Notes: generated by a model from the letters alone, not told the origin. Positions 5,815 through 36,598 are shown, numbered from the stretch's first letter. The stretch is DNA of 64,000 nucleotides from an uncultured Candidatus Saccharibacteria bacterium (GCA_964543075.1 CAZIVT010000002.1:3089-67088), one strand, 5' to 3'. A program made the numbers and translations.

Positions 5815-7419
5815 ATGAAAAATAAACTAATCATTGGAATCATCGTGGTCGTTGTCATCATTGGAGGGGTTGCCCTTTTACAGCGATCTAACACTGGCAA
5901 TATAGTGATGGCCGGCAGTTTTTCTACCGACATCACCGGTCTTGCTGAAGCCAAGCAGAGCGAGACGGTCGAACTTAAGAACGGCGATACGTACGATCTC
6001 ACCGCTTCAATCGTAAAGAAAACGATCGGCAACAGCGTGGTCAAAATGCTTGCCTATAACGGCATGATACCGGGACCCATGATCAAGGTGCAACAGGGTG
6101 CGGAAGTTACTTTGAATTTCACCAATAACACCGATGTCGATACCACGATCCATTCTCACGGTGTTCGGCTGGAGAATAAGTTTGATGGCGTACCAGACGT
6201 AACCCAGAAAGAAGTGAAGCCAGGTGAATCATTTACTTACAAAATCAAATTCCCTGACGAGGGTATGTATTGGTATCACCCTCACATTCGGGAGGACTAT
6301 GCACAAGAACTTGGTCTCTATGGAAATTATCTAGTAGTTCCAAATGATCCGAACTACTGGTCTCCAGTCAATCGTGAAGTCGCACTCTTTGTCGACGACA
6401 TTCTTATCGAGAACGGCAAGATTGCAGTATTCAGCAAAGAGTCAGCTGACCGCACCCTCATGGGCAGGTTCGGGAACACCATGCTCGTAAATGGAGAGAC
6501 CAACTATTCACTTCAAGCAAAAGCCGGAGAAGTTATTCGCTTCTACATCACCAATTCAGCAAATACCAGAACGTTTAACATATCTATCCCCGGTGCAAAA
6601 ATGAAACTAGTAGGAGCTGATGGCGGCAAATACGAACGCGAAACGTGGAGCGACAGCATACTCTTGAGTCCGTCTGAACGCGCTATTGTTGAGGTATTGT
6701 TTGCCGATGCCGGATCATACAAGATTGAGCATAAGACTCCAGAGCGTACTTATACTCTTGGAACAATTACAGTCTCTCCAGAAAAAGTAGCTACTTCATA
6801 CAGTAAAGAATTTGGCGTACTGCGTTCAAATAAAGATATTCAATCGGAGATTGATGCATTCAGATCATCATTCAATAAACCGGCCGATAAACGTCTGAAG
6901 CTCACGATTGATATGGGAATGCAAATGCAGGGCATGATGCAAAGTAACACCGGCGGACATAACATGAACATGATGGGTAATGACCAGATGATGTCCAACA
7001 ATGAAATGGTGTCAAGCGGCGATCCTATCGAGTGGGAAGAAAACAATGCGGCGATGAATACGATGTCGAATCCGGAAATGATGAAGTGGGTTATAGAAGA
7101 CGAAGATACCGGCAAGAAGAACATGGACATTGACTGGAATTTCAAAGTCGGCGACAAGGTAAAAATCAAAATTACCAACGATCCGAACTCCATGCATCCG
7201 ATGCAACACCCAATCCACTTCCACGGCCAGCGATTCTTAGTCTTGAGTACGAACGGTAAGTCGAATGATAACCTCGTCTGGAAAGATACTACGCTTATCC
7301 AAAATGGGGACACCGTTGAGATTATCGTTGAAATGACGAACCCAGGCGAATGGATGGCGCATTGTCACATTGCGGAGCATTTGGAGGCGAGCATGATGTT
7401 TGGGTTTAAGGTAGAGTAA
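5815..7419 (+). CDS. Multicopper oxidase with methionine-rich insert
   Basis: Copper ligand motifs HSHG, WYHPH, HPMQHPIHFHG and HCHIAEHLEASMM. Met-rich segment MGMQMQGMMQSNTGGHNMNMMGNDQMMSNNEM, as in CueO/PcoA-type oxidases. Confidence 0.9.
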   Translation: MKNKLIIGIIVVVVIIGGVALLQRSNTGNIVMAGSFSTDITGLAEAKQSETVELKNGDTYDLTASIVKKTIGNSVVKMLAYNGMIPGPMIKVQQGAEVTLNFTNNTDVDTTIHSHGVRLENKFDGVPDVTQKEVKPGESFTYKIKFPDEGMYWYHPHIREDYAQELGLYGNYLVVPNDPNYWSPVNREVALFVDDILIENGKIAVFSKESADRTLMGRFGNTMLVNGETNYSLQAKAGEVIRFYITNSANTRTFNISIPGAKMKLVGADGGKYERETWSDSILLSPSERAIVEVLFADAGSYKIEHKTPERTYTLGTITVSPEKVATSYSKEFGVLRSNKDIQSEIDAFRSSFNKPADKRLKLTIDMGMQMQGMMQSNTGGHNMNMMGNDQMMSNNEMVSSGDPIEWEENNAAMNTMSNPEMMKWVIEDEDTGKKNMDIDWNFKVGDKVKIKITNDPNSMHPMQHPIHFHGQRFLVLSTNGKSNDNLVWKDTTLIQNGDTVEIIVEMTNPGEWMAHCHIAEHLEASMMFGFKVE

Positions 7420-11992: not shown

Positions 11993-12061
11993 TCACTTTC
12001 GACCATCCCGCCTTTGGCGGGATAAACTCAGCCACGACCCGCCTTGGCGGGTCACGTCTCC
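11993..12061 (-). pseudogene. Decayed copy of the tRNA-Ser 5' portion (nt 1-26) interrupted by two mini-hairpin insertions
   Basis: The reverse complement reads GGAGACG[TGACCCGCCAAGGCGGGTCG]TGGCTGAG[TTTATCCCGCCAAAGGCGGGA]TGGTCGAAAG. With the brackets removed it equals the first 25-26 nt of the intact tRNA-Ser. Confidence 0.65.
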
Positions 12062-18199: not shown

Positions 18200-18532
18200 A
18201 TGAAGAACAAAACCTCATCAAAGAAGACCCTCGTGAGCTCGGTTATCATCATCGTCGCTGTGGCGATCGCGTATTTCTTCTATATGGGCAACAAGGCCCC
18301 CTCCGGACAGTCTCTACTCGAGACGCAGGTGACGCCTGAGGCCAACGCGGCCAGCTCGCGCATACTGGCTCTGCTCAATCAGATCAGATCGCTCAAGATA
18401 GACACGGAGATATTCGATGATCCGGTATATCAGACGCTCATCGATTATTCGGTCGCCATACCAGATGTCCCTGTCGGCAGGCTCAATCCGTTCGCTCCTA
18501 TACCAGGAGTGCCGATAGAAGGGTCAAATTGA
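18200..18532 (+). CDS. Small membrane-anchored protein of the pilus operon
   Basis: Start moved to MKNKTSSKKTLVSSVIIIVAVAIAYFF. No recognisable family. Confidence 0.4.
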   Translation: MKNKTSSKKTLVSSVIIIVAVAIAYFFYMGNKAPSGQSLLETQVTPEANAASSRILALLNQIRSLKIDTEIFDDPVYQTLIDYSVAIPDVPVGRLNPFAPIPGVPIEGSN

Positions 18533-18616
18533 ACGTTGAAAATTGAACGTTGAAGATTAATCCCTCGGGACTAATAGCCGGAATTTTCAATTTTCAATTT
18601 TCAATTTTCAATGCAA
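18527..18616. repeat. Intergenic word-repeat hairpin element H8
   Basis: Left arm is (AATTGAACGTTGAA)x2 and right arm is (ATTTTCA)x4. They are partly complementary (TTGAAAATTGAA versus TTCAATTTTCAA). Confidence 0.6.
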
Positions 18617-18617
18617 C

Positions 18618-20360
18618 ATGTCTGTCCTCGATATCCTACTCCAGAAGAATATCATCACCAAAGATGACGTCCGCGACATCCGCAAGGCGACATCCGCAGG
18701 CAGTCCGCTCGAGGACGCGCTGATCGCCCGTGGGGTCAAACCAGAAGACGTCATCGCGGCCCGCGGTGAATTCCTCAATATGCCCGTCCGTGCGGTAGCC
18801 GAGCAATCGGTCCCTTTTGAAGTGCTCGAGTACATCCCCGAGGAGTCGGCCGTCCACTACAAGTTCGCGCCGCTCGGTCTCGTCGACGGGACGCTCGAAG
18901 TCGGCATCGTCGATCCTGACAACATGGAGGCACGCGACGCGCTGACCTTCTTGGTGGCGAAAAAGAACATCCCATACAAGCTATTCCTCATCACTATCGA
19001 TGACTTCAAGAAAGTGATCGAGATGTACAAAGGCATCACCGGAGAGGTGTCCAAAGCGCTCTCGGAGCTCGAGAGCGAGCTCTCTGTCGATATCTCTGAT
19101 GGCATCAAGAAAGAGGACCTCGCGTCAGAGAAAGGTGGCGGCAAAGGCTCGAGCAAAGCCGAGGATGAGACGCTGATCATCGAGGATGCTCCTGTGGTCA
19201 AGATCGTCGCTACTATCGTCCGGTATGCCGTCGAAGGGGAGGCCTCAGACGTCCACATCGAGCATATGCGCGACAAGATCCGCGTGCGCTTCCGCGTCGA
19301 TGGTGTGCTCAATACGTCGCTCATCTTGCCGCCGCAGGTGCACTCGGCTGTCGTGGCTCGCATCAAAGTCCTCTCCAACATGCGCCTCGACGAGAAGCGC
19401 AAGCCTCAGGACGGACGCTTCTCGGCACGCATAGACGGACGTCGTGTCGATTTTCGTGTCTCTACATTCCCTTCGTATTATGGCGAGAAAGTCGAGATGC
19501 GTATCCTCGACCAAGCAAAGGGTATCCGTACTCTCGACGATATGGGCATGTCCGACAAGAATCTCTCTATGCTCCGTGAGGCGATCAACAAGCCATACGG
19601 CATGATCCTCATCACGGGCCCGACCGGTTCTGGAAAATCCACTACGCTCTACTCTATCCTCGGCGAGGTCGACCGTGAGAGCTACAACGTCCTATCGCTC
19701 GAAGATCCGGTCGAATATCAGATGGAAGGCGTCAGCCAATCGCAGGTTCGTCCGGAGATCGGATATGATTTCAGCTCTGGATTGCGCACGACGCTCCGTC
19801 AGGACCCCGATATCATCATGGTCGGTGAGATCCGCGACAAAGAGACCGCCCAGCTGGCGGTGCAGGCGGCTCTGACCGGTCACTTGGTCTTCTCGACTCT
19901 GCACACCAATGACGCCGCCGGCGTCATACCGCGTCTCATCGATATGGGTGTCGACCCGTATCTGATCGCGCCGACGCTCATCCTAGCAGTCGCGCAACGC
20001 CTCGTAGGACTCTTGCCAAAGGGCGGGGGAGAGCCCATGGCGGTCGATGGCAGTCTCAAAGCGATGATAGACAAGCAGTTCGCTGATCTTCCTGAACAAT
20101 ACAGGCAGGACATCCCATTCACAGATACTGTCAACAAGATCAAACCTACTCCCGAGTGTCCCAAAGGGACGAGGGGCCGTATGGCAGTCTTCGAGATGTT
20201 CACTATGGACAAGGATATCGAGAAAGTCATCCTGACCAATCCGACCGAGACAGAGATCTTCAAGATCGCGCGCGCAAAAGGCATGACTACCCTCAAGGAA
20301 GATGCCATCATCAAGGCGTTCGGCAAAGTGATACCGATAGAGGAGGTCAATAAGCTGTGA
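18618..20360 (+). CDS. pilB: Type IV pilus assembly ATPase PilB (GspE family)
   Basis: T2SSE N-domain, Walker A GPTGSGKST, Asp box, Walker B and His box (LVFSTLHTN). Confidence 0.92.
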   Translation: MSVLDILLQKNIITKDDVRDIRKATSAGSPLEDALIARGVKPEDVIAARGEFLNMPVRAVAEQSVPFEVLEYIPEESAVHYKFAPLGLVDGTLEVGIVDPDNMEARDALTFLVAKKNIPYKLFLITIDDFKKVIEMYKGITGEVSKALSELESELSVDISDGIKKEDLASEKGGGKGSSKAEDETLIIEDAPVVKIVATIVRYAVEGEASDVHIEHMRDKIRVRFRVDGVLNTSLILPPQVHSAVVARIKVLSNMRLDEKRKPQDGRFSARIDGRRVDFRVSTFPSYYGEKVEMRILDQAKGIRTLDDMGMSDKNLSMLREAINKPYGMILITGPTGSGKSTTLYSILGEVDRESYNVLSLEDPVEYQMEGVSQSQVRPEIGYDFSSGLRTTLRQDPDIIMVGEIRDKETAQLAVQAALTGHLVFSTLHTNDAAGVIPRLIDMGVDPYLIAPTLILAVAQRLVGLLPKGGGEPMAVDGSLKAMIDKQFADLPEQYRQDIPFTDTVNKIKPTPECPKGTRGRMAVFEMFTMDKDIEKVILTNPTETEIFKIARAKGMTTLKEDAIIKAFGKVIPIEEVNKL

Positions 20361-20373
20361 TATAATAATACCC

Positions 20374-20799
20374 ATGACTGAACAAACCGTAACCACTGCT
20401 TCCTCTGCGCCGGCTTCGGATGCAAAGAAAGTCCTCCTCGTCGATGACGACAAGTTCCTGCTCGATATGTATGCCATCAAGTTCAGCAAGGCTGGCTACG
20501 AAGTCAAGACGGCAGATGCCACGGACGCGGCCCTCAAGATGCTCCGCGACGGATATATCCCCGATGTGATGCTCGCTGACATCGTCATGCCTGGTCTCGA
20601 TGGTCTCGAGCTGGTCGCAAGTGTCAAGAAGGAGAACTTGATCCCCCAAGCCAAGGTCATCATGTTGACCAATCAGGGCTCTTCCGATGACGTCTCCCGA
20701 GCCAAGAAGCTCAACGTGGATGGCTATATCGTCAAAGCGACGACCATACCGTCGGAGGTGCTCGGTGAAGTGGAGAAGATTATCAGCAGTAAACCGTAA
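20374..20799 (+). CDS. Stand-alone response-regulator receiver protein
   Basis: VLLVDDD...DVMLADIVMPGLDG...VIMLTNQG...GYIVKA are CheY-like receiver residues. It lies between pilB and pilT. Confidence 0.85.
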   Translation: MTEQTVTTASSAPASDAKKVLLVDDDKFLLDMYAIKFSKAGYEVKTADATDAALKMLRDGYIPDVMLADIVMPGLDGLELVASVKKENLIPQAKVIMLTNQGSSDDVSRAKKLNVDGYIVKATTIPSEVLGEVEKIISSKP

Positions 20800-20810
20800 A
20801 GTCAGCCGCG

Positions 20811-20880
20811 TGGTACCTAGTTAGTTCTCGCTACTAGATGCAGAAACTATGTAACTAGGTGCTATGCAACTAAGTAACTA
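20811..20880. repeat. Intergenic word-repeat hairpin element H2 (TCGCTACTAGAT..GCAGAAACTATGTAACT family)
   Basis: The core at 20828..20873 is about 90 percent identical by eye to 33190..33240. Arms GTACCTAGTTAG / CTAACTAGGTGC pair. Confidence 0.7.
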
Positions 20881-20886
20881 CCGTAT

Positions 20887-21945
20887 ATGGACTATAAACA
20901 AGAAATCCAAGAACTCGTCGACCTGGTCTTCAAGGAAGGCGCATCAGACCTGCATCTCTCGACTGGCCGCACGCCGATCATCCGCGTCTCCAGCAATCTG
21001 ATACCGCTCGTCAAGAAACCCACGCTATCTGACGCAGATATGAAGGGCTTCCTCAAGGTATTCCTCAACGAAGAGAGCATCGAGATCTTCCACAGAGAGA
21101 AAGATGTCGACTTTTCATACGGCCTAGACCAGGCGCGTTTCCGTGGCAATGCCTACTATCGTCAAGGCGCTATCTCCATCGCGCTTCGTCTCATCCCCAA
21201 GGCCATACGGACGCTTTCGGAGCTCAACCTGCCTCCTATCCTCGAGACATTCACGAGGAAGCCCCAGGGATTCTTCCTCGTGGTAGGACCGATCGGCCAA
21301 GGCAAGACCACTACGCTGGCTACGCTGGTCGAGATCATCAATCAGACGAGGTCAGAGCACATCATGACCATCGAGGATCCCATCGAGTATCTTTTTGATT
21401 CCAAGAAGTCCATCATCGATCAGCGCGAGGTGCGTTTCGATACGCCTGATTTCCAGACAGCTCTGGTGGCCATGTTCCGTCAGGATATCGATGTCTGTAT
21501 GGTGGGCGAGATGCGAGACAATACCACTGTCGCTACCGCCGTGACCGCCGCTGAGACAGGTCACCTGATCTTCTCGACACTGCATACCAACAATGCCGCC
21601 CAGACGATCAACCGCATCATCGACTCGTTCCCGCCGAGCCAGCAGGATCAGATCCGTATCCAGCTGGCAGGATCCCTGTCAGGCATATTCTCTCAGCGCC
21701 TCATCCCGCGCATCTCTGGCGGACAGATCCCGGCGTATGAGCTTCTCATCAACAACACCGCCGTCGCCAACCTGATTCGCGAGAAGCGCATCCATGAGAT
21801 CAATACCGTCATCGAGACGAGCTCACAGGAGGGGATGATCGACATGAACCGCTCGCTCGCCGAGCTCGCGCGATCCGGAGAGATCACCGTCGAGAACGCG
21901 TATCTCAATTCGCTCAATCCCAAGACGCTCGAACGCATGATGTGA
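20887..21945 (+). CDS. pilT: Twitching-motility retraction ATPase PilT
   Basis: Walker A GPIGQGKTT, and IFSTLHTNNAAQTINRIID is typical of PilT. 352 aa. Confidence 0.92.
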   Translation: MDYKQEIQELVDLVFKEGASDLHLSTGRTPIIRVSSNLIPLVKKPTLSDADMKGFLKVFLNEESIEIFHREKDVDFSYGLDQARFRGNAYYRQGAISIALRLIPKAIRTLSELNLPPILETFTRKPQGFFLVVGPIGQGKTTTLATLVEIINQTRSEHIMTIEDPIEYLFDSKKSIIDQREVRFDTPDFQTALVAMFRQDIDVCMVGEMRDNTTVATAVTAAETGHLIFSTLHTNNAAQTINRIIDSFPPSQQDQIRIQLAGSLSGIFSQRLIPRISGGQIPAYELLINNTAVANLIREKRIHEINTVIETSSQEGMIDMNRSLAELARSGEITVENAYLNSLNPKTLERMM

Positions 21946-21946
21946 T

Positions 21947-22037
21947 GTCAGTCAGATAGTCCATCGGTACATCGTCCAGTAGTCCTCGCTACCGGAATCA
22001 GCAGTAGAGATTATTCGACTGGGAACTATTGAACTGT
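21947..22037. repeat. Intergenic word-repeat hairpin element H3
   Basis: TCCTCGCTACCGGAATCAGCAGTAGAGATTATTCGACTGGGAACTATTGAAC is related to the H1 core (GCTACC..AATC.AG..GCAG..ATTCGACT..GAACTATT). Confidence 0.6.
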
Positions 22038-22065
22038 GATACATGCTCGCGCTATAATTACTCTC

Positions 22066-23277
22066 ATGCTTTTCAACTATGAAGCCATAGACGCGACCGG
22101 AGGCAAGAAGAACGGCTCTATAGATGCCATCAATCTAGACATCGCCATCGCTTCGCTCCAGCGACGCGGGCTCGTACTCACCAATATCAAAGAGGCCGAT
22201 GCCCCGAGCGGCATCCTCTCCGCCAATATCTCCTGGTTCGACCGTGTCTCAGTCAAGGACGTTGTCATCCTGTCCCGCCAGCTGGCGACTCTCTTTGAGG
22301 CGCAGGTGTCGGCGCTCCGCATCTTCCGCTTGCTCGGATCAGAGTCTGAAAATCACGTGCTAGCCAAGAAGCTCACCGAGATCGCCGATGATCTCCAAGC
22401 GGGAAGCTCGATATCCACAGCCCTCTCCAAACATCCCAAGGTATTCAGCGATTTCTATGTCAGCATGGTCAAAGCAGGTGAGGAATCAGGCAAGCTCGAC
22501 GACACCTTCCAGTATCTGGCCGACTATCTCGATCGCACCTATGAGCTCACGTCTCGCGTCCGCGGAGCGCTCATCTATCCGGCGTTCGTGGTCGTGACCT
22601 TCGTCGTGGTCATGATCCTCATGTTCACCATGGTCATCCCCAAGATCAGTGGCATCCTCGTCGATTCGGGCGTGGAGATACCGGTCTACACGCGCGTGAT
22701 CCTCGGACTCAGCAATTTCCTCGTAGAATACGGCTTCATCATCCTCGGCGTCGTCCTCATCGGCGGCTTTTTCCTCATCAGATTCATCCGCACGCCGGTG
22801 GGCAAGGCCGCGTTCGATCGATTCAAGCTCAATATCCCATATGTCAGCGGACTCTATCGCAAGCTCTACCTCTCGCGCATGGCCGACAACATGGCGACCA
22901 TGCTCGGTTCAGGTATCCCGATGGTCCGCGCGCTCGAGCTCACGTCCAATGTCATCAACAACAGCATCTACCAAGGCATCCTGACGGGGTCAGTGGAGAT
23001 GGTCAAGGGTGGTAAGACGCTCTCCGAGTCGCTCTCCGTCGATCCTGACGCTATCCCCGGTATCATGACGCAGATGATGAAGGTGGGTGAGGAGTCCGGC
23101 GAGCTCGGCAGTATCCTCAAGACCGTGGCCAAGTTCTACAGCCGCGAAGTGACCACAGCCGTCGACTCGCTCGTCTCGCTCATCGAGCCGCTCATGATCG
23201 TGCTCCTCGGCGGGGGAGTCGCCGTCCTTCTGGCGTCGGTGCTCATCCCGATCTACAACATCGCCAGCGCGCAGTAG
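22066..23277 (+). CDS. pilC: Type IV pilus platform protein PilC (GspF family)
   Basis: Start moved to MLFNYEAIDATGGKK (TATAAT-N7-ATG). Two GspF repeats and three TM segments. Confidence 0.9.
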   Translation: MLFNYEAIDATGGKKNGSIDAINLDIAIASLQRRGLVLTNIKEADAPSGILSANISWFDRVSVKDVVILSRQLATLFEAQVSALRIFRLLGSESENHVLAKKLTEIADDLQAGSSISTALSKHPKVFSDFYVSMVKAGEESGKLDDTFQYLADYLDRTYELTSRVRGALIYPAFVVVTFVVVMILMFTMVIPKISGILVDSGVEIPVYTRVILGLSNFLVEYGFIILGVVLIGGFFLIRFIRTPVGKAAFDRFKLNIPYVSGLYRKLYLSRMADNMATMLGSGIPMVRALELTSNVINNSIYQGILTGSVEMVKGGKTLSESLSVDPDAIPGIMTQMMKVGEESGELGSILKTVAKFYSREVTTAVDSLVSLIEPLMIVLLGGGVAVLLASVLIPIYNIASAQ

Positions 23278-23281
23278 CAGG

Positions 23282-23325
23282 AACACGCAGGGTAGACCTG
23301 CGTACGCAGGTCTACCCTGCGTGTT
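23282..23325. repeat. REP element copy 1 (44-bp perfect palindrome)
   Basis: AACACGCAGGGTAGACCTGCGTACGCAGGTCTACCCTGCGTGTT, 4 nt after the pilC stop. Confidence 0.9.
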
Positions 23326-23447: not shown

Positions 23448-23975
23448 ATGAAAAAGTTTACACAGAAAGGCTTCACCCTCATCGAACTCCTCGTGGTGAT
23501 CGCCATTATCGGTATCTTGTCGTCTGTTGTGTTGGTCTCCCTCAATAGTGCTAGGAGCAAGGGTGGGGATGCAGCTATACAAGGGAATTTGAATGCAATT
23601 AGAACTCAAGCTGAACTCTGGGCAAATAATCAGTCGACACCAACATATGCTACAACGGCTTTTGCGGCGGCGGCATGTCCAGGTACTACACAAACAGGAA
23701 ATATTCTTAATGATTCAACCATAATAAGCGCGATTAATGGTGCAAGTACTCAGGCAGGGGGTAGTGATAACAGTGACACCCGTTGCGCGGTCCGTTCAAA
23801 TGGATGGGCAATAGCCTCTCAACTTAAATCAGGTGGTACTGCAGGAGACTCAACACCAGATGCATGGTGTGTGGATAGCAGCGGAATCGCGAAACCCTAC
23901 ACGTATACATCTGGACAGACGATTGCGAATACGATCACTGATAACTCTTCTGGAAATACAGCATCCTGTAATTAG
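23448..23975 (+). CDS. pilA: Type IV major pilin
   Basis: Prepilin leader MKKFTQKG followed by FTLIELLVVIAIIGIL, and C-terminal Cys residues. Confidence 0.85.
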   Translation: MKKFTQKGFTLIELLVVIAIIGILSSVVLVSLNSARSKGGDAAIQGNLNAIRTQAELWANNQSTPTYATTAFAAAACPGTTQTGNILNDSTIISAINGASTQAGGSDNSDTRCAVRSNGWAIASQLKSGGTAGDSTPDAWCVDSSGIAKPYTYTSGQTIANTITDNSSGNTASCN

Positions 23976-24044: not shown

Positions 24045-24082
24045 CCGCAGGGTAGACCTGCGTACGCAGGTCTACCCTGCGG
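24045..24082. repeat. REP element copy 2 (38-bp perfect palindrome)
   Basis: CCGCAGGGTAGACCTGCGTACGCAGGTCTACCCTGCGG. It overlaps the last codons and the stop of the RAYT ORF. Confidence 0.9.
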
Positions 24083-24659
24083 GGACTGCGAGGATTCGAT
24101 AGGTGATGATGCTTGTTTGACTTCGGGACTCCCCCAAGTAGTCCTTGAAACTCGAGTACTCATATGATTTTGAATACTCTATAGCCTCGCCCAAATACTC
24201 CGTTTTGGCAGTTTTCGTCATGTCTGGTTGGTCTATTCCATATGGATTGAGATGAACGTATTGGACCAGATATCGCAGATACTCATCGGAGTCTACATGT
24301 TTTGATCTATACTGGCCTTGGAATATAGTGCCCGAATGGTCGTATTTCTTGTTGTAGTACATGGCATATGAGGTGCAGAGCCTCTGCATGAACTTTTCCA
24401 CCCCTCTTTCTGTCGTCTCGCGCATTCCGATATGAAAATGATTGGGCATGAGGCAGTAGCAGAATATATCCGTGAGCGTATCACGTTCAAACCGAAACAT
24501 ATCTGTCGGCTTTATTGTACGCAGGTCTACCCTGCGGGTGTGGTTATTCATGACGTACAGTAGTTGCAAAAACCTCATATAATCGGATGTGTCATGGAAA
24601 ATAGGCGCTTTGTGAGCACCTCGGTTATATACATGGTAGTGTTCTCCGATGATATGCAT
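24072..24659 (-). CDS. REP-associated tyrosine transposase (RAYT, IS200/IS605 Y1 TnpA-like)
   Basis: YHVYNRG, HUH motif CLMPNHFHI, and catalytic-Tyr region YLRYLVQYVHLNP. It is flanked by REP palindromes. Confidence 0.85.
   Translation of the reverse strand: MHIIGEHYHVYNRGAHKAPIFHDTSDYMRFLQLLYVMNNHTRRVDLRTIKPTDMFRFERDTLTDIFCYCLMPNHFHIGMRETTERGVEKFMQRLCTSYAMYYNKKYDHSGTIFQGQYRSKHVDSDEYLRYLVQYVHLNPYGIDQPDMTKTAKTEYLGEAIEYSKSYEYSSFKDYLGESRSQTSIITYRILAVPAG
24518..24537. repeat. Half REP inside the RAYT coding sequence
   Basis: TACGCAGGTCTACCCTGCGG, translated on the minus strand as TRRVDLRT. Confidence 0.7.
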
Positions 24660-24668
24660 GATCTGCAG

Positions 24669-24690
24669 TCCGCAGGGTAGACCTGCGTAC
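24669..24690. repeat. Half REP upstream of the RAYT start
   Basis: TCCGCAGGGTAGACCTGCGTAC is the left half only, 10 nt upstream of the RAYT ATG. Confidence 0.75.
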
Positions 24691-24801
24691 AGTACGATAT
24701 CAAAAGCAGATAAAATCCAGATAAAATAAGTATAAAGTTTTACTAAAGTTTTCCCCCTATATCTGATGATTGCTTGTCATACGTCGTGGTATAATTCATT
24801 T

Positions 24802-25347
24802 ATGAATAAAAATTCCCTCCGCAGGGTAGACCTGCGTACGCAGGTCTACCCTGCGGAAAAAGCTTTTACTATCATCGAGCTTCTCGTCGTGATCGCCATC
24901 ATCGCGCTCTTGACCGGTATCATCATGACCAACCTGACTTCCGCGAAGTCTCGTGCCAGGGATGCCAAGAGGATATCGGATATGGGGCAGATCGCTCTGG
25001 CGCTCGAGCTTTTCTATGATAGGTGTGGATCGTATCCTATAGCAGAGGGGTATCTTAGTCTTTCAGAAGACGCCAATGGATATTGCCCTAGTGGTGTGAC
25101 ATTTGAAGATTTTATGTCTGTTATTCCTTCCAATCCAGCTCCATATGATCTACCATATTACTACTATAATGCCCCTAGTGATGAGGTTGATTTCAAGGCA
25201 AAGAAATACCTGCTACGTGTCACCTTAGAAGGGAGCAACTCGGTATTGGATGATGATGTCGATAGTATACCAATAGCGGATTGGCCTGATATAGCCAGTA
25301 ACTTTTGTTCTGATGCCTCGAACGCCTACTGCATAATCGGAAATTAG
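24802..25347 (+). CDS. Type IV pilin-like protein with a REP-encoded leader segment
   Basis: MNKNSLRRVDLRTQVYPAEKA then FTIIELLVVIAIIALL. TATAAT-N6-ATG at 24790-24804. There is no alternative start between the REP and the FTIIE motif. Confidence 0.8.
   Translation: MNKNSLRRVDLRTQVYPAEKAFTIIELLVVIAIIALLTGIIMTNLTSAKSRARDAKRISDMGQIALALELFYDRCGSYPIAEGYLSLSEDANGYCPSGVTFEDFMSVIPSNPAPYDLPYYYYNAPSDEVDFKAKKYLLRVTLEGSNSVLDDDVDSIPIADWPDIASNFCSDASNAYCIIGN
24818..24857. repeat. REP element copy 3 (40-bp perfect palindrome) inside a prepilin leader
   Basis: TCCGCAGGGTAGACCTGCGTACGCAGGTCTACCCTGCGGA. Confidence 0.9.
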
Positions 25348-25348
25348 C

Positions 25349-26155
25349 TTGACTACTGTAACTTATCTCCTCCTCCCGTTCATATTCGGTGCCATAGTCG
25401 GCAGTTTTCTCAATGTCGTTGCCTTACGATTCGGGACCGGAAAAGGGATCGGAGGACGTTCGGGTTGTATGAATTGCGGCAAGAAGCTCGGTTGGCGCGA
25501 GCTGATACCGATCGTGAGCTTCTTTTTTCAGAAGGGTCGATGCAGGGAGTGCGGGAGCAAGATATCGTGGCAGTATCCGCTGGTAGAATTCATGACGGGC
25601 GCTATGTTCGCCTTGATCTTCTTGACCTTCCCGCCGTTCGATGTCGTGTCATCGGTGATGACGGTACTCCATATCATTGCGGCTTGTCTGCTGCTGGTTA
25701 TCTGTGTCTATGACATCAAGCACAAGATCATACCCGACGTGTTCTCATATGCTTTTTCTGGTATCGCACTCATCTCTCTCTTCGTCGGCGGATGGTCCTG
25801 GTGGCATGTTCCGAGCTGGTGGCAGATCATCGCCGGACCGCTCGCCGCTGTGCCGTTTGCGCTGATCTGGCTCGTCTCTCGTGGCAGATGGATGGGCCTC
25901 GGCGACGCCAAGCTGATGCTCGGCATCGGCTGGTTCCTCGGGATATCAGGGGCTGTCAATGCCATCATCTTGGCTTTCTGGATAGCCGCCGCAGTCAGCA
26001 TCATATGGATGCTCGTCACCTATAGGCGCTTCAAACGGGGAATGGAGATACCGTTCGGTCCCTACCTCATCGTGGGTATGTACGCCGTGCTCTTATTCGG
26101 GATCCAGGCGATAGATACGGGGATGCTCATGGAGCTTTTTACTTGGTATAATTGA
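25349..26155 (+). CDS. pilD: Prepilin peptidase / N-methyltransferase (A24 family)
   Basis: TTG start. LNVVALRF, Cys-pair zinc motif CMNCGKKL...CRECGSKI, and DVFSY / GLGDAKLM aspartyl motifs. Confidence 0.9.
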   Translation: MTTVTYLLLPFIFGAIVGSFLNVVALRFGTGKGIGGRSGCMNCGKKLGWRELIPIVSFFFQKGRCRECGSKISWQYPLVEFMTGAMFALIFLTFPPFDVVSSVMTVLHIIAACLLLVICVYDIKHKIIPDVFSYAFSGIALISLFVGGWSWWHVPSWWQIIAGPLAAVPFALIWLVSRGRWMGLGDAKLMLGIGWFLGISGAVNAIILAFWIAAAVSIIWMLVTYRRFKRGMEIPFGPYLIVGMYAVLLFGIQAIDTGMLMELFTWYN

Positions 26156-26159
26156 CCAT

Positions 26160-26765
26160 ATGCATAGTCCAAAAGAACAGCATGCTTTGAGATCAGTACA
26201 GTGTCCTCGACATGAACAGAAGAGTCGCGCGGGATTCACACTGGTCGAGCTCATAGTATCCGTGGCGATATTTGCCGTGATGACGGCCTTGGTAGTGGCG
26301 AAATATGGCAACTTCAATAACAACATACTGTTCACCAATCTCGCGTATGACGTCGCTGGCATCATCAGGACCGCCCAGTCATATGGACTGAGCGTGAGGA
26401 GCGCGGACGATGTGGGCAATTTCCAATCCGCCTACGGTGTGCATATATCTACCGACCAGCCCAAGACCATCATCTTCTTCGCTGATACGGATGAGGACGG
26501 CATCTATGGCGGCTCGAGCGAGGACATCAGCTTTTATGCGCTCAAGCAAGGGGCATATATCGTCGGATATTGCTTTGTGCCCTCATGTCAGGGATATGCC
26601 AATGGAGACCTCAATATCACGTTCAAGAGGCCTGATCCGGATGCGAGGTTGTATGATAGCGAGTTCCTCATCGGGAATTATGCCGAGATAGTCATCCAGT
26701 CACCCCAAGGAGATACGCGCGCGATAGTCGTCCGTGGCAACGGACAGATATCGATCAAAGACTAG
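26160..26765 (+). CDS. Minor pilin / pseudopilin (FimT/GspH-like)
   Basis: Long leader ending SRAG, then FTLVELIVSVAIFAVM. TATAAT-N7-ATG. Confidence 0.75.
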   Translation: MHSPKEQHALRSVQCPRHEQKSRAGFTLVELIVSVAIFAVMTALVVAKYGNFNNNILFTNLAYDVAGIIRTAQSYGLSVRSADDVGNFQSAYGVHISTDQPKTIIFFADTDEDGIYGGSSEDISFYALKQGAYIVGYCFVPSCQGYANGDLNITFKRPDPDARLYDSEFLIGNYAEIVIQSPQGDTRAIVVRGNGQISIKD

Positions 26766-26830: not shown

Positions 26831-27484
26831 ATGAATCATCCCCAGAGATCGAACACGATAGGCGCGCAAGGATGTCGCGAGCGCGGCTTCACACTCGTCG
26901 AGATGATCGTGGCGCTCGCCATCTTCTCCATCGTCTCCGTGGTGGCGCTCGGCGCGTTGGTCAAGATCGTCTCCGCCAACAAAAAGGCCCAGAGCCTCCA
27001 GTCGTCGATCAGCAACTTGAGCTTCGCGCTCGATGCCATGTCTCGCGAGCTGCGTACCGGCAAGAATTATCATTGCGAGAGCAATGATGGTAGTCCGAAC
27101 TATACAGGAGAAGACATAGACTTATTGGGATGTCCGTCTGGATTGAGCGATCGAGAGACTGCCACGTTGCTCGGGTTCGCTTCGGCCAAGCGCATACCGG
27201 ATAGTAGTGGCACCTGCGCCGCTGCCTATGCGTATCGGTTCCGTCCCGAGGGGAGCGTGTATGTCCTGGAGAAAGCTGTTCAGACAGACTGCGATGAAGG
27301 CATCAGCTCTACCGACTTCGAGAATATCATCGACGAGAACGTCGAGATCACTGGGTATTTTCTCTCCGTCCAAGAAGACGAGTATCCTCGAGTGACCGTA
27401 CGCATCTCCGGGTATTCTGGCGTGAGGGAGAGGGAGAAGACCTACTTTGACGTGCAGACGACGATATCGCAACGCGTCCCATAA
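26831..27484 (+). CDS. Minor pilin / pseudopilin (PilW/GspJ-like)
   Basis: ...CRERG then FTLVEMIVALAIFSIV. Start set at the second ATG (26831), which is 7 nt after TATAAT. ATG 26825 is the alternative. Confidence 0.75.
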   Translation: MNHPQRSNTIGAQGCRERGFTLVEMIVALAIFSIVSVVALGALVKIVSANKKAQSLQSSISNLSFALDAMSRELRTGKNYHCESNDGSPNYTGEDIDLLGCPSGLSDRETATLLGFASAKRIPDSSGTCAAAYAYRFRPEGSVYVLEKAVQTDCDEGISSTDFENIIDENVEITGYFLSVQEDEYPRVTVRISGYSGVREREKTYFDVQTTISQRVP

Positions 27485-27488
27485 TCTC

Positions 27489-28067
27489 ATGACTATCTTC
27501 AACCACCAATCTTCAACCGTCGATTCCCGCAGGGTAGACCTGCGTACGCAGGTCTACCCTGCGGGGGCGAGTTCCGGCTTTACCATCATCGAGACGTTGG
27601 TGGCGATAACTGTGCTGATGATCGCTATCGCCGGGCCGCTGGTCGTAGCGACCAAGGGTCTCGCCGCGGCGCAGACTTCCAAGAATCAGATGATCGCCAC
27701 CTATCTCGCGCAAGAGACCATGGAGATCGCCAAGAATACCAAAGACAATAACATCGCCTCAGGTGCGGCATGGGATGAGCTGCTCAACGAATGCTCGGAG
27801 AGCTCGCCGTGCGATATGAGCCCGTTCGACGATTATATATTATGCCCGGAATCCCAGTACCAAGGCCAGGGATGCAGGATCTATTTCACTCCGGAGTTCG
27901 GGTATGTCAATTCTGCCACCGGAGATTCGACCCCGTTCTACCGCAAGTTCTATATCGAGCCGATCGGCAGCAGTGAGATATCCGTCAACGTCATGGTCAA
28001 TTGGAGGGAAGGGGCTCTTCCATATCAGGTTCATATTACCAATCAAATGCTCAATACTACCCGATGA
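27489..28067 (+). CDS. Minor pilin / pseudopilin (PilV/GspI-like) with a REP-encoded leader segment
   Basis: MTIFNHQSSTVDSRRVDLRTQVYPAGASSG then FTIIETLVAITVLMIAI. Start moved to the first ATG after the upstream stop. Confidence 0.75.
   Translation: MTIFNHQSSTVDSRRVDLRTQVYPAGASSGFTIIETLVAITVLMIAIAGPLVVATKGLAAAQTSKNQMIATYLAQETMEIAKNTKDNNIASGAAWDELLNECSESSPCDMSPFDDYILCPESQYQGQGCRIYFTPEFGYVNSATGDSTPFYRKFYIEPIGSSEISVNVMVNWREGALPYQVHITNQMLNTTR
27526..27565. repeat. REP element copy 4 (40-bp perfect palindrome) inside a prepilin leader
   Basis: CCCGCAGGGTAGACCTGCGTACGCAGGTCTACCCTGCGGG. Confidence 0.9.
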
Positions 28068-28563: not shown

Positions 28564-28590
28564 GACGCAGGTCTACCCTGCGTACGCAGG
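28564..28590. repeat. Partial/permuted REP
   Basis: ACGCAGGTCTACCCTGCGTACGCAGGT is the right REP half followed by the start of another right half, 6 nt after the pilX-like stop. Confidence 0.7.
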
Positions 28591-28605: not shown

Positions 28606-30879
<2,274 letters not shown>

Positions 30880-31609: not shown

Positions 31610-33163
31610 ATGCCAATAGACTTACAAAATCTGACGATCGTGAAAGCGCATGAAGCGCTCAAGAAGGGCGAATTCACTTCGGTCGAATTGACGCAGGCGT
31701 ATCTGGATCAAATTGCCGCACGCAACGGCGACATCTACGCATATCTGGAGGTCTTCGAAGACGCGATAGATCAGGCCAAGGAGGCGGATAAGAAAATACA
31801 AGGATTGATCTCGCCAACGGCGGGGTTGACCCCGCCTGTGGCGGGGTTGAAAGAAGGAAAGATTGAAAGATTGAAAGATTCGGATACAGCCGCGGATTTC
31901 CCGATGTTGCTGGGCATCCCGTGCGCGATCAAAGATAATATCCTCATCAAGGGCCACATCGCCAGTTCAGCGTCCAAGATATTGGAGCGATATCATGCGA
32001 CCTACGATGCCACGGTCATCCGCAAGCTCAAGGAGGCCGGCGCGGTCTTCCTCGGACGCACCAATATGGACGAATTCGCTATGGGCGGCTCGACCGAGAA
32101 CTCCGCCTATGGTCCGACTAGGAATCCGCACGATCTCGAACGCGTTCCAGGCGGGACCTCGGGAGGATCGGCAGCTGTCGTAGCGGCGGACATGGCATTG
32201 TTTGCGCTCGGCTCGGATACAGGAGGATCGATCAGACAACCTTCGAGCTTTTGTGGTGTGGTAGGGATCAAACCGACATACGGCAATGTATCACGATATG
32301 GTCTGATGGCGGCTGTTTCGTCATTTGACCAGATTGGTCCGATAGTCAAGACGGTCGAAGATGCCGAAATAGTATTTGATGTGATCAAAGGGAAGGATGA
32401 GAAGGATGGAACAAGTCAAAATTCTCCCGCCTCCGCTCCACTCCGCGAAGCTTCGGCGGGCAAGCAATTCCCAATTCCCAATTCCCAATTCCAACACAGG
32501 CAAGATCGATTGCGTATAGGTATTCCGAAACACTTCTTGAAAGGAGATGGCATCGATCCGGCGGTCGTGAAGGCGTTCGAATCTTCGGTGGAAGCGCTTA
32601 AAGCTAAGGGATATGAGGTGATCGATATCGAGTTACCGAATATCTCGTATTCATTACCTGCATATTATATTCTGAACTTTGCGGAAATATCGTCCAACAT
32701 GGCGCGCTATGATGGTATGAGATTCGGTCTCCATGTAGATGGCGCGGACGGCATCGGCGACTATTTCGAGACGCGCAAGGCGGGCTTAGGCAAGGAGGTC
32801 ATCCGCCGCATCTTGCTCGGCACCTATGTACTCTCGTCAGGATACTACGACGCCTATTACAATCGCGCCAATGCCGTGCGCCGGATGATCACCGAGGACT
32901 TCACCAAAGCATTTCAGTCAGTCGACGTCATCGCCACGCCGACCACGCCATCTCCTGCGTTCAAACTCGGCGAGAAGACGAGCGATCCGGTGGCGATGTA
33001 TCTGGAAGATATATTCACCGTGACGGCAAACCTGACGGGCATGCCGGCCATCTCCGTGCCGATGAAGACCGACGGATTGCCCGTAGGCATCCAGTTCACC
33101 GCGCCACAGGGAGGGGAGAGCGCTCTATTTGAGATCGGAAAAGAGACGGAGATAGTCGAGTAG
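31610..33163 (+). CDS. gatA: Glutamyl/aspartyl-tRNA amidotransferase subunit A with two extra in-frame segments
   Basis: Amidase signature GGSSGGSAA-like GGTSGGSAAVVAA, GSDTGGSIRQP and KDNI. Confidence 0.95.
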   Translation: MPIDLQNLTIVKAHEALKKGEFTSVELTQAYLDQIAARNGDIYAYLEVFEDAIDQAKEADKKIQGLISPTAGLTPPVAGLKEGKIERLKDSDTAADFPMLLGIPCAIKDNILIKGHIASSASKILERYHATYDATVIRKLKEAGAVFLGRTNMDEFAMGGSTENSAYGPTRNPHDLERVPGGTSGGSAAVVAADMALFALGSDTGGSIRQPSSFCGVVGIKPTYGNVSRYGLMAAVSSFDQIGPIVKTVEDAEIVFDVIKGKDEKDGTSQNSPASAPLREASAGKQFPIPNSQFQHRQDRLRIGIPKHFLKGDGIDPAVVKAFESSVEALKAKGYEVIDIELPNISYSLPAYYILNFAEISSNMARYDGMRFGLHVDGADGIGDYFETRKAGLGKEVIRRILLGTYVLSSGYYDAYYNRANAVRRMITEDFTKAFQSVDVIATPTTPSPAFKLGEKTSDPVAMYLEDIFTVTANLTGMPAISVPMKTDGLPVGIQFTAPQGGESALFEIGKETEIVE

Positions 33164-33267: not shown

Positions 33268-33882
33268 ATGCCTCCTTCGGAGTTCACAGACCCGTCTCCC
33301 CATATATCGATCGGCCCACCACAGGTCGACATCATGTCGTCTCTAGATACGGCGTATCAAGCTTTTCTCGCGTGGTTGCCGGCGCTGACGTCGATCCTCA
33401 AGTCAGCGTTCGGTGTCTTGGTGGGCCTCTCATTCCCGATATCGCTCTTTTTCCTGATCGTCATCATCTACTGCGTGGAACAGCTCAAGTATATCCGTAA
33501 GAGGGAGGAGCTCATATACGACACGCGGACCGAACCCGCGTATCAGGAACAAGAGGGAGGAGATCCAAAGCTCGCGCATCAGTGGTCGAGCGTGATACGG
33601 CACATCGAGTCTCCCAACGAGAACGATTGGAAGCAGGCGATCCTTGAGGCAGATATGATCCTCGGTGACATCCTGACTGCCATGGGCTATAGGGGAGAGA
33701 GCATCGGGGAGAAGCTCAAGCGGGTCAGTCTCGGCGATATGAAGTCTCTCGACGATGCCTGGGAGGCGCACAAAGTCCGCAATGACATCGCGCATCGACC
33801 TGGTTTCTCCATCAACCAGTATGATGCCCGACAGGTCATCGCTCGATACCGCAAGGTCTTCGAGGAGTTCTACTACATTTGA
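33268..33882 (+). CDS. Hypothetical membrane protein
   Basis: 204 aa with two N-terminal TM segments and a soluble helical C-domain. TATAAT-N8-ATG. Confidence 0.5.
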   Translation: MPPSEFTDPSPHISIGPPQVDIMSSLDTAYQAFLAWLPALTSILKSAFGVLVGLSFPISLFFLIVIIYCVEQLKYIRKREELIYDTRTEPAYQEQEGGDPKLAHQWSSVIRHIESPNENDWKQAILEADMILGDILTAMGYRGESIGEKLKRVSLGDMKSLDDAWEAHKVRNDIAHRPGFSINQYDARQVIARYRKVFEEFYYI

Positions 33883-33885
33883 TAC

Positions 33886-33988
33886 AGATATACGAATGCA
33901 TGCAAATCTACGAATAACTACGAATAGCGCAATCGCCATTCGCAGTTATTCGCATCATTCGAATAATTCGTATATTCGTATCGTGCGT
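33886..33988. repeat. Intergenic word-repeat hairpin element H9 (CGAATA-word family)
   Basis: Long imperfect inverted repeat ...CTACGAATAACTACGAATAGCGC AATC GCCATTCGCAGTTATTCGCATC.... A single-arm relative lies at 31574..31609. Confidence 0.6.
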
Positions 33989-36510: not shown

Positions 36511-36598
36511 AACTCAAAACTCAAAGCTCAAAAGTCAAAAATAGACCAAATCGAAAAATCAGCGTTAGTTTTGCGTTTTGATTTTTGAGCTTTGAGTT
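36511..36598. repeat. Intergenic word-repeat hairpin element H7 (AAACTC/TCAAAA-word family)
   Basis: Left arm AACTCAAAGCTCAAAAGTCAAAA (36518..36540) pairs with right arm GTTTTGATTTTTGAGCTTTGAGTT (36575..36598). Confidence 0.7.

Follow-up and report, generated by a model that had tools for sequence, protein, structure and literature searches.

REP doublets in the leader-coding parts of two prepilin genes from an uncultured Candidatus Saccharibacteria bacterium

Type IVb prepilins and other class III signal peptides have long leaders of about 15–30 aa that are processed by PilD-family peptidases; Gly (or Ala) at −1, a hydrophobic N-terminus, and Glu at +5 are the main needs of these enzymes. 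Here we describe a 64,000-nt stretch of DNA from an uncultured Candidatus Saccharibacteria bacterium (GCA_964543075.1, CAZIVT010000002.1:3089-67088), hereafter the window, in which two prepilin genes have a doublet of repetitive extragenic palindromes (REPs) in their leader-coding parts. Intragenic, in-frame REPs of the GTAG and CGTC superfamilies were catalogued before, including N-terminal cases, a DNA ligase, and dimers encoding 20–30 aa (PMC3733652). The Rickettsia palindromic elements (RPEs; Ogata et al. 2000), as far as the accounts in PMC3733652 and PMC10969869 go, are the classic palindromic elements within functional genes. Classical REP doublets forming hairpins (REPINs) have a spacer, occur in tens to hundreds of copies, and are extragenic (PMC5581495, PMC3337134). 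Full-text searches of the literature returned no paper that deals with REPs in prepilin leaders, or with REP-associated tyrosine transposases (RAYTs) in Patescibacteria. Our analysis suggests that the two doublets probably lie in the translated leader part of intact prepilin genes and that such leader insertions are probably tolerated.

REP doublets in two prepilin leaders

The features at the centre of the analysis are listed below, with coordinates counted from the first nucleotide of the window.

24787 to 24795, plus strand: extended −10 element TGgTATAAT, 6 nt before the ATG at 24802, found by eye and by conservation
24802 to 25347, plus strand: pilin 1, GspG-like prepilin, 181 aa; PF07963 25.3 bits (cut-off 21.2), TIGR02532 21.6 bits (cut-off 16.3)
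24802 to 24864, plus strand: pilin 1 leader, 21 codons, MNKNSL-RRVDLRTQVYPA-EKA; predicted cleavage before F22 (TTT at 24865)
24819 to 24856, no strand assigned: perfect REP doublet in the pilin 1 leader; core at 24820-24855
25349 to 26155, plus strand: prepilin peptidase of the PilD/A24 family, the expected leader-removing enzyme; PF06750 2.6e-30, PF01478 1.9e-12
27489 to 28067, plus strand: pilin 2, PilV-like minor prepilin, 192 aa; PF07963 20.4 bits (cut-off 21.2)
27489 to 27578, plus strand: pilin 2 leader, 30 codons, MTIFNHQSSTVDS-RRVDLRTQVYPA-GASSG; predicted cleavage before F31 (TTT at 27579)
27527 to 27564, no strand assigned: perfect REP doublet in the pilin 2 leader; core at 27528-27563

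The repeated element is a 38-mer, CCGCAGGGTAGACCTGCGTACGCAGGTCTACCCTGCGG, that is identical to its own reverse complement. Three copies with 0 mismatches were found in the window (24045-24082, 24819-24856, and 27527-27564). A fourth copy (23285-23322) has 2 mismatches, both at the outermost bases. No copy is expected by chance in shuffled sequence. The four long copies have a 36-nt core in common, CGCAGG-GTAGA-CCTGCG-TA-CGCAGG-TCTAC-CCTGCG, which consists of two 18-nt REP units, inverted and placed head to head with no spacer. Each 18-nt unit forms a hairpin with a 6-bp stem and a 5-nt GTAGA loop (−10.1 kcal/mol), and the 38-nt hairpin of the doublet folds at −36.9 kcal/mol.

In both pilin genes the full REP lies between the start codon and the cleavage motif, A|FTIIELLVVIAII in pilin 1 and G|FTIIETLVAITVL in pilin 2. 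A preliminary description of this DNA had reported this placement, and a codon-by-codon reading agreed with it. The codon phase of the REP is identical in the two genes and reads RRVDLRTQVYPA. After the predicted cleavage, pilin 1 would begin with FTIIELLVV and pilin 2 with FTIIETLVA. Two frames of the 38-mer are open (PQGRPAYAGLPC and RRVDLRTQVYPA), and the third reads AG* (TAG); the perfect palindrome, the stop-free peptide, and the TAG in one other frame had all been described correctly. From the REP to the cleavage motif, no ATG, GTG, or TTG was present in either gene. In-frame starts are found farther upstream (ATG at 24766 and TTG at 27447). The earlier statement that each gene has only one available start codon was slightly loose: it held for the region downstream of the REP, and not for the region upstream. 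If the upstream starts were used, the REP would be translated all the same.

Pilin 1 retains all family-invariant residues of the alignment. The open reading frame (ORF) of pilin 2 is full length, and its conserved N-terminal helix is kept. Both pilin genes look intact as far as their sequences can tell.

The closest comparison was provided by locus L004 (contig JBAZBL010000006.1), which is from an independent Paceibacterota metagenome-assembled genome (MAG) with the same 18-nt REP unit; the same unit and arrangement were also found in a Joint Genome Institute (JGI) metagenome. L004 is syntenic with the window: pilin, RAYT on the minus strand, pilin 1 orthologue, peptidase, two pseudopilins, pilin 2 orthologue, pseudopilin, and ligA. 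Its pilin 1 and pilin 2 leaders have no REP and read MKKSG|FTLIE (5 aa) and MKQISNRKNNVRG|FTIVETLVAIT (13 aa), respectively. The REP units of L004 lie in intergenic spacers, with none in genes except RAYT. Among the listed homologues with a recognisable cleavage motif, the pilin 1 leader had a median of 10 aa and a typical start of MK(K/N)xL (119 homologues), and the pilin 2 leader had a median near 13 aa (120 homologues). Leaders ranged from 4 to 41 aa across both families, as called. After removal of the 12 REP codons, the window leaders would be 9 aa (pilin 1) and 18 aa (pilin 2), lengths in keeping with the two families; P0122, which comes from the syntenic locus L021 and is the homologue closest to pilin 2, has a leader of 18 aa. 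The comparison with REP-free orthologues, which had been proposed as a check, supports the view that the REPs are insertions and not ancestral leader sequence. Complementarity of the A/T-rich flanks (31-nt arms, 84%) was also considered as an inverted duplication with pilin sequence. It was rejected, as AAAGCTTTTAC (K-A-F-T) is native to the family.

A −10 box, exactly 6 nt, and the ATG of pilin 1 were found in this order in five loci, namely the window, L004, L021, L024, and L023. The box is TGgTATAAT in the window and L021, TATAAT in L004 and L024, and TACAAT in L023. This conserved arrangement places the ATG at 24802 at the 5′ end of a leaderless mRNA, in agreement with the 'probably leaderless transcript' of the preliminary description. 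The pilin 1 promoter was missed by a generic two-hexamer scan, which requires a −35 hexamer. MNKNSL aligns with the family start MK(K/N)xL of pilin 1 and is the ancestral start of this gene. The NCBI protein P0001 begins at ATG 24766 (193-aa form). This start sits upstream of the −10 box and is therefore probably miscalled. The Logan gene call P0007 (L021 720-733) starts at an internal ATG, with MKNIL beginning 6 nt past the −10 box. Start-codon miscalls in the public annotation are likely for both P0001 and P0007. The pattern TGnTATAAT, 6–7 nt, ATG was seen at several pilin and pseudopilin genes (window 24787-24804 and 26144-26162; L004 2845-2861), each of which seems to have a promoter of its own within the cluster and to yield a leaderless mRNA.

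The hairpin spans +18 to +55 in the pilin 1 mRNA, with the first 17 nt unpaired, and +39 to +76 in the pilin 2 mRNA. Folding of the 5′ mRNA had also been proposed as a check; both leader RNAs folded far better than shuffles (z = −8.3 and −7.1, respectively). We conjecture that the hairpin probably slows or modulates pilin translation instead of abolishing it. On the minus strand (24816-24859), the leader REP hairpin is followed by a T-run and was marked as resembling a terminator, which could halt antisense transcription short of the RAYT promoter. It is probably incidental to the AAAAATT of Lys and Asn codons.

A RAYT-like gene and its REP units

The remaining REP units of the window, and the RAYT-like gene near them, are as follows.

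24072 to 24659, minus strand: RAYT-like gene for an HUH/Y1 transposase (IS200-like); PF01797 32.6 bits against a cut-off of 23
23285 to 23322, no strand assigned: REP doublet whose outer bases are A/T, not C/G; it follows the PilC-like gene and precedes the first pilin gene
24045 to 24082, no strand assigned: perfect REP doublet that overlaps the RAYT 3′ end; its TAG is the RAYT stop (...VPAG*)
24518 to 24535, minus strand: single REP unit within the RAYT coding sequence, read as RRVDLR
24672 to 24689, plus strand: one REP unit, 13 nt before the RAYT start codon and in the orientation opposite to that of the internal unit
28564 to 28581, minus strand: REP unit (1 mismatch) accompanied by a partial copy in tandem, located after the last pseudopilin gene and before ligA

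Besides the four doublets, single 18-nt half units are thus present at 24518 (−), 24672 (+), and 28564 (−, 1 mismatch). The window holds 11 units of the form GCAGG-N5-CCTGC in total (4 doublets and 3 singles), whereas 0.02 are expected by chance. All of them lie between 23287 and 28581, that is, in 5.3 kb around the RAYT gene out of the 64 kb scanned, and three of the seven REP sites are intragenic. GGGTAGACCT was found in 11 of 11 units, which gives each the GTAG tag of REPs; the tag lies in the loop of the single-unit fold here, in contrast to a position 5′ of the stem in E. coli, and the two may be functionally equivalent. Pairing extends past the 36-nt core by 4, 1, 2, and 2 bp at the doublets at 23285, 24045, 24819, and 27527, respectively. 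With this extension the palindrome is 44 nt at 23282-23325, runs over 24818-24857, and is 40 nt at 27526-27565. The outermost pair co-varies among the doublets, being A-T at 23285 and C-G in the other three. The element may be a 38-mer whose outer pair varies; alternatively, the doublets may arise from single units via fold-back copying that takes in flanking bases.

In a scan of genome and metagenome contigs, the 18-nt unit recurred only in a single related MAG and in the JGI counterpart of that MAG; the other matches, in unrelated taxa, were due to chance. The related MAG (JBAZBL01, which includes L004) has REP units on at least four contigs. An Rfam search of the hairpins returned miRNA-precursor matches only, all of them sub-threshold. 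We identify the palindromes as REP doublets, REPIN-like, of a small family linked to the nearby RAYT-like gene.

The RAYT-like gene is 150 nt from pilin 1. Its product matched NF047646 (REP_Tyr_transpos) with E = 6e-9 and 35.9 bits, a score below the equivalog cut-off of 80, and the window RAYT is a divergent relative. The HUH motif H74-F-H76 is invariant across 28 RAYT homologues. Tyr117, the putative catalytic residue, is present in the window RAYT and in 21 of the 28 homologues; by similarity of the motif, we take it to be the counterpart of the E. coli catalytic Tyr. Some JGI homologues carry the source name 'REP element-mobilizing transposase RayT'. Judged by the source names of the related MAG and of the closest proteins, the organism belongs to the Patescibacteria (Paceibacterota). 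The gene has a unit on its 5′ side (24672), one inside (24518), and a doublet on its 3′ side (24045-24082), which is the REPtron arrangement. The units are arranged alike around RAYT in L004, L027, L028, and L029.

The internal REP unit falls in a segment of fixed length that reads [RH]R[VCI]DLR in the ~20 closest RAYT homologues. It was located at 1189-1206 in L004 and at ~6120-6137 in L027, and it was also found in L028 and L029. In other genomes, the DNA of the internal unit keeps the hairpin and varies together with the flanking REPs of the same genome. The L027 unit is CGCAGG-TGCGA-CCTGCG, and the identical variant stands at the 3′ end of the gene. The L028 unit is CGTAGG-GTAGA-CCTACG, which still encodes RRVDLR via synonymous, compensatory changes, and the flanking REPs of L028 have the same CGTAGG/CCTACG stem. 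The internal unit is no accident of the window genome and co-varies with the REPs of each genome.

The frame in which the leader REPs are read (RRVDLR...) is the frame in which RAYT reads its internal unit. With two leaders, this agreement has a chance of 1/9 and could be fortuitous. The shared frame motivated a speculative reading, to which we give little credence: this REP lineage would be 'coding-competent' by origin, keeping a translatable phase (RRxDLR) within RAYT and colonising permissive coding sites, and the leader hairpin, at the 5′ end of leaderless pilin mRNAs, together with RAYT-mediated gain or loss could act as a switch of pilus expression in these host-dependent bacteria.

The TAG of the REP unit (GCAGGGTAG) is the RAYT stop codon in the window (24072-24082, ...VPAG*) and in L004 (~758-771, ...VYAG*). 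In L004 a REP TAG is apparently the ligA stop too (~7257-7265, ...LCAG*). The RAYT stop (GCG TAG) also lies inside a REP unit in L027 (6577-6588) and L028 (6559-6570).

A divergently oriented RAYT gene of this clade adjoins the pilin 1 gene in no fewer than four related loci, namely the window and L004, L021, and L023. A RAYT homologue beside pilin 1 was also recognised, from translation alone, in L024 and L026. RAYT genes of this clade are in unrelated neighbourhoods in L027, L028, and L029, so the position is not strictly fixed.

Palindromes in other leaders and repeats in other genes

Ten long leaders (≥17 aa) were examined at the DNA level, and each was scored by the z-score of its fold against shuffles. 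Six of the ten folded significantly better than shuffles and contained palindromic repeats:

Window pilin 1 leader: z = −8.3, REP doublet
Window pilin 2 leader: z = −7.1, REP doublet
L020 PilV-like leader: z = −6.1, 70-nt inverted repeat of AGGGTAC heptamers, which also occur three times in its own ligA
L025 PilV-like leader: z = −4.5, GAAATCC / GAATTTC inverted repeat
L021 pilin 1 orthologue leader: z = −3.3, 28-nt palindrome CGATGTCGCACCTCGAGGCGCGACATCG
L026 pilin 1 orthologue leader: z = −2.1, palindrome related to units in its RAYT-pilin spacer

The L024 leader has a single REP-like unit, CGCAGGTTGGTCCTGCA, which is read as RRLVLH, and its fold was not significant. No palindrome was found in the long leaders of L023, L030, and L031. 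Seven repeat-free leader stretches (three from the window, two from L004, and the window leaders at 26160 and 26825) gave z-scores of −0.1 to +0.9. The longer window leaders at 26160 and 26825 had no hidden palindromes (z = +0.9 and +0.7, respectively). The suggestion that the leader is a tolerant landing site gained from this survey, since six of the ten long leaders carry genome-specific palindromes. Leaders have been entered more than once by repeats of unrelated sequence, which persist in intact genes.

In-frame palindromes are a general habit of the window genome: a second palindrome family, GGCGGGG..CCCCGCC, is translated in frame within ligA and gatA. Four exact copies of CCCGCCWWGGCGGG were found at 12038, 29413, 29441, and 34757, two of which are intergenic and two in ligA. 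Compared with L004, the window ligA (28609-30879) has three in-frame inserts, near 29115-29190, 29390-29460, and 30370-30470. One contains the twin hairpins CCCGCCTTGGCGGG and CCCGCCAAGGCGGG, and one contains short tandem repeats of the GAAATCC type. The three insert sites are hypervariable across five genomes, and the L020 ligA has AGGGTAC-heptamer inverted repeats at all three. In gatA (~31821-31850), a related hairpin and a threefold repeat of GAAAGATT make up a 24-aa insert; a further 19-aa insert of GatA (…KQFPIPNSQFQ…) resembles the leader peptides of P0171, P0178, and P0224. Prepilin leaders, three LigA loops, and two GatA loops may thus be recurrent permissive sites for repeat insertion.

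The remaining features of the pilus cluster and its surroundings are given below.

18618 to 23277: ORFs for a GspE-like ATPase, a PilT-like ATPase, and a PilC-like protein, identified by eye from the ORF translations
23448 to 23975, plus strand: REP-free pilin gene that served as internal control; its leader is short and canonical, MKKFTQKG|FTLIELLVV
18526 to 18612: intergenic AT-rich inverted or tandem repeat, ATTGAACGTTGAAAATT..., upstream of the GspE-like gene
33881 to 33982 and 36518 to 36598: long imperfect palindromes, AT-rich and intergenic, near the tRNA cluster

Competing explanations and known systems

The explanation that we favour is local insertion. The RAYT, or another REP-spreading process, would have seeded copies in the type IV pilus cluster, and two copies would have landed in the leader-coding stretches of two prepilin genes. 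Three properties would have let these copies survive. As the 36-nt core is exactly 12 codons, the downstream frame is kept. The phase used has no stop and adds a net charge of +2, as would suit a class III signal peptide on its cytoplasmic side. The adjacent PilD-like peptidase would then cut off the extended leader, and the mature pilin would be unchanged because the leader is removed. Such cleavage is plausible from what is established for PilD-family enzymes, which need Gly or Ala at −1 and process type IVb leaders of 15–30 aa. Ala at −1 is common in the pilin 1 family.

Several points weigh against this explanation. With two of three frames stop-free, the in-frame state of two inserts is unremarkable alone (4/9 by chance). 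Identity among the three perfect copies marks the insertions as recent, and an intact ORF is then weak evidence of continued function. The PF07963 N-methylation motif score of pilin 2 is just under the cut-off (20.4 vs 21.2 bits), despite which its motif is shared by 119 homologues. The pilin 2 leader without the REP would have no positive residue, which is unusual in the family. Four of the ten long leaders (L023, L030, and L031, with L024 by fold statistics) have no palindrome, and long leaders arise in other ways too. That the extended leaders are translated and cut, and that the hairpin has any effect, we infer from sequence. Mobilisation of the REP units by RAYT is likewise presumed, with activity on these units as an assumption, and a PDB sequence search with the RAYT alone and as a 28-sequence profile returned nothing meaningful and no solved relative.

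If the insertions are recent, they may also be deleterious. The hairpin or the altered leader would then block translation, membrane insertion, or cleavage, the genes would be decaying into pseudogenes, and the REP peptide would at no time belong to a working prepilin. Copies that are 100% identical are young events, the leaderless mRNA has a −37 kcal/mol hairpin from +18 onward, the stop-free in-frame state has a chance of ~4/9, and in the sister MAG the REP units stay outside genes except RAYT. We consider this outcome unlikely, yet a real alternative. Both ORFs are full length with all family-invariant residues kept. Pilus assembly normally requires PilV-like minor pilins, and the other genes of the cluster are intact. 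Family leaders reach 41 aa, and older, diverged palindromes are found in the leaders of intact orthologues in L021, L024, L026, L020, and L025. Pseudogenes, and a non-canonical start downstream of the REP, were the two outcomes that the preliminary description saw as decisive against it. Both are contradicted by comparative evidence, which comprises the lack of ATG, GTG, or TTG, the conserved promoter, and the intact ORFs.

Co-option of the leader REPs as regulators was the next possibility. The hairpin, or binding and excision by RAYT, would lead to translational attenuation or to RAYT-dependent phase variation. The distribution of the repeats gives some grounds for it. No window REP lies outside the pilus cluster; two copies occupy the 5′ ends of pilin mRNAs, and another precedes, by ~25 nt, a −10-like box ahead of the first pilin; in four genomes the palindrome of the pilin 1 orthologue starts at ~+18 to +23; and RAYT is beside pilin 1 in at least four related loci. 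Local transposition, however, explains the clustering near RAYT more simply, and the units of the sister MAG also adjoin unrelated genes. Neither leader of L004, the nearest relative that shares the REP, contains a palindrome, and 4 of the 10 long leaders lack one as well. Where palindromes are present, they differ in sequence and length, as is expected for independent insertions of the repeats of each genome. Co-option for regulation is improbable on this balance.

It is very improbable that the REPs are untranslated, with a non-canonical downstream start, such as a CTG within the REP, and the REP in the 5′ untranslated region. Many REPs annotated in ORF N-termini are probably extragenic (PMC3733652), and an in-frame CTG is indeed present inside the REP. 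This CTG start was rejected: the codon is buried in the stem, the stretch from the REP to the cleavage site is free of ATG, GTG, and TTG, and MNKNSL is homologous to the family leader start and exactly 6 nt from a conserved −10 box. A prepilin also requires a leader that ends in G or A before F+1. Assembly or amplification artefacts can practically be dismissed: the source is a MAG contig and inverted chimeras do arise in amplified DNA, but the 38-mer stands at four separate sites with the frame kept at both leader sites, the REP unit recurs in an independent MAG and in JGI contigs, and 38 nt is shorter than the repeats that confuse assemblers.

Tolerated leader insertion, the reading that we retain, would be an orthologue-backed case of a mobile REP in a translated region whose surplus peptide the cell is already equipped to remove. 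It helps to account for the places where such elements can persist in genomes that are tiny and densely packed with genes, and it points to RAYT/REP systems that may be active in Patescibacteria. Gene callers and surveys of pilin leader length should allow for repeat insertions in leaders. Because type IV pili are central to the epibiotic lifestyle of these bacteria, the strong 5′ hairpin of a leaderless pilin mRNA is a candidate modulator of pilus expression.

Compared with GTAG-tagged REPs (Di Nocera et al. 2013, PMC3733652), the window elements are likewise short, GC-rich GTAG palindromes, often in inverted dimers, with a tyrosine transposase gene flanked by units and a minority of copies in frame in ORFs. 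They differ in the host, a member of the Patescibacteria; in the spacer-less, perfect 38-nt dimer that encodes 12 aa; in the unit within the RAYT coding sequence; and in the insertion into a cleaved class III leader, which would leave the mature protein undecorated. Many N-terminal cases in that catalogue have a suspected downstream start, whereas the upstream start here is backed by orthologues and a promoter. As in REPIN/RAYT systems (Bertels and Rainey 2011; PMC5581495, PMC3337134), a single-copy RAYT is flanked by REPs, and inverted doublets are presumed to be mobilised by it. Unlike REPINs, the 11 units of the window are confined to ≤5.3 kb from the RAYT (64 kb seen), have no spacer, and occupy three sites in coding sequence.

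As far as RPEs are described in the sources named above, they resemble the leader REPs as mobile palindromes in frame at structurally permissive sites, and the likeness is functional only. RPE-1 is ~150 bp, encodes ~45–50 aa that stay in the mature protein, and has no RAYT in these accounts (families ~100–150 bp). The window insert is 36 nt, RAYT-linked, in a different host, and expected to be lost with the leader. The long leaders of type IVb prepilins are native sequence, unlike the window leaders, which appear to be recent mobile-palindrome insertions. The novelty implied by the preliminary description is therefore lower than it seemed, as in-frame intragenic REPs are already in PMC3733652. 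In-frame intragenic REPs and RPEs are known, and the location in a cleaved leader is the new aspect.

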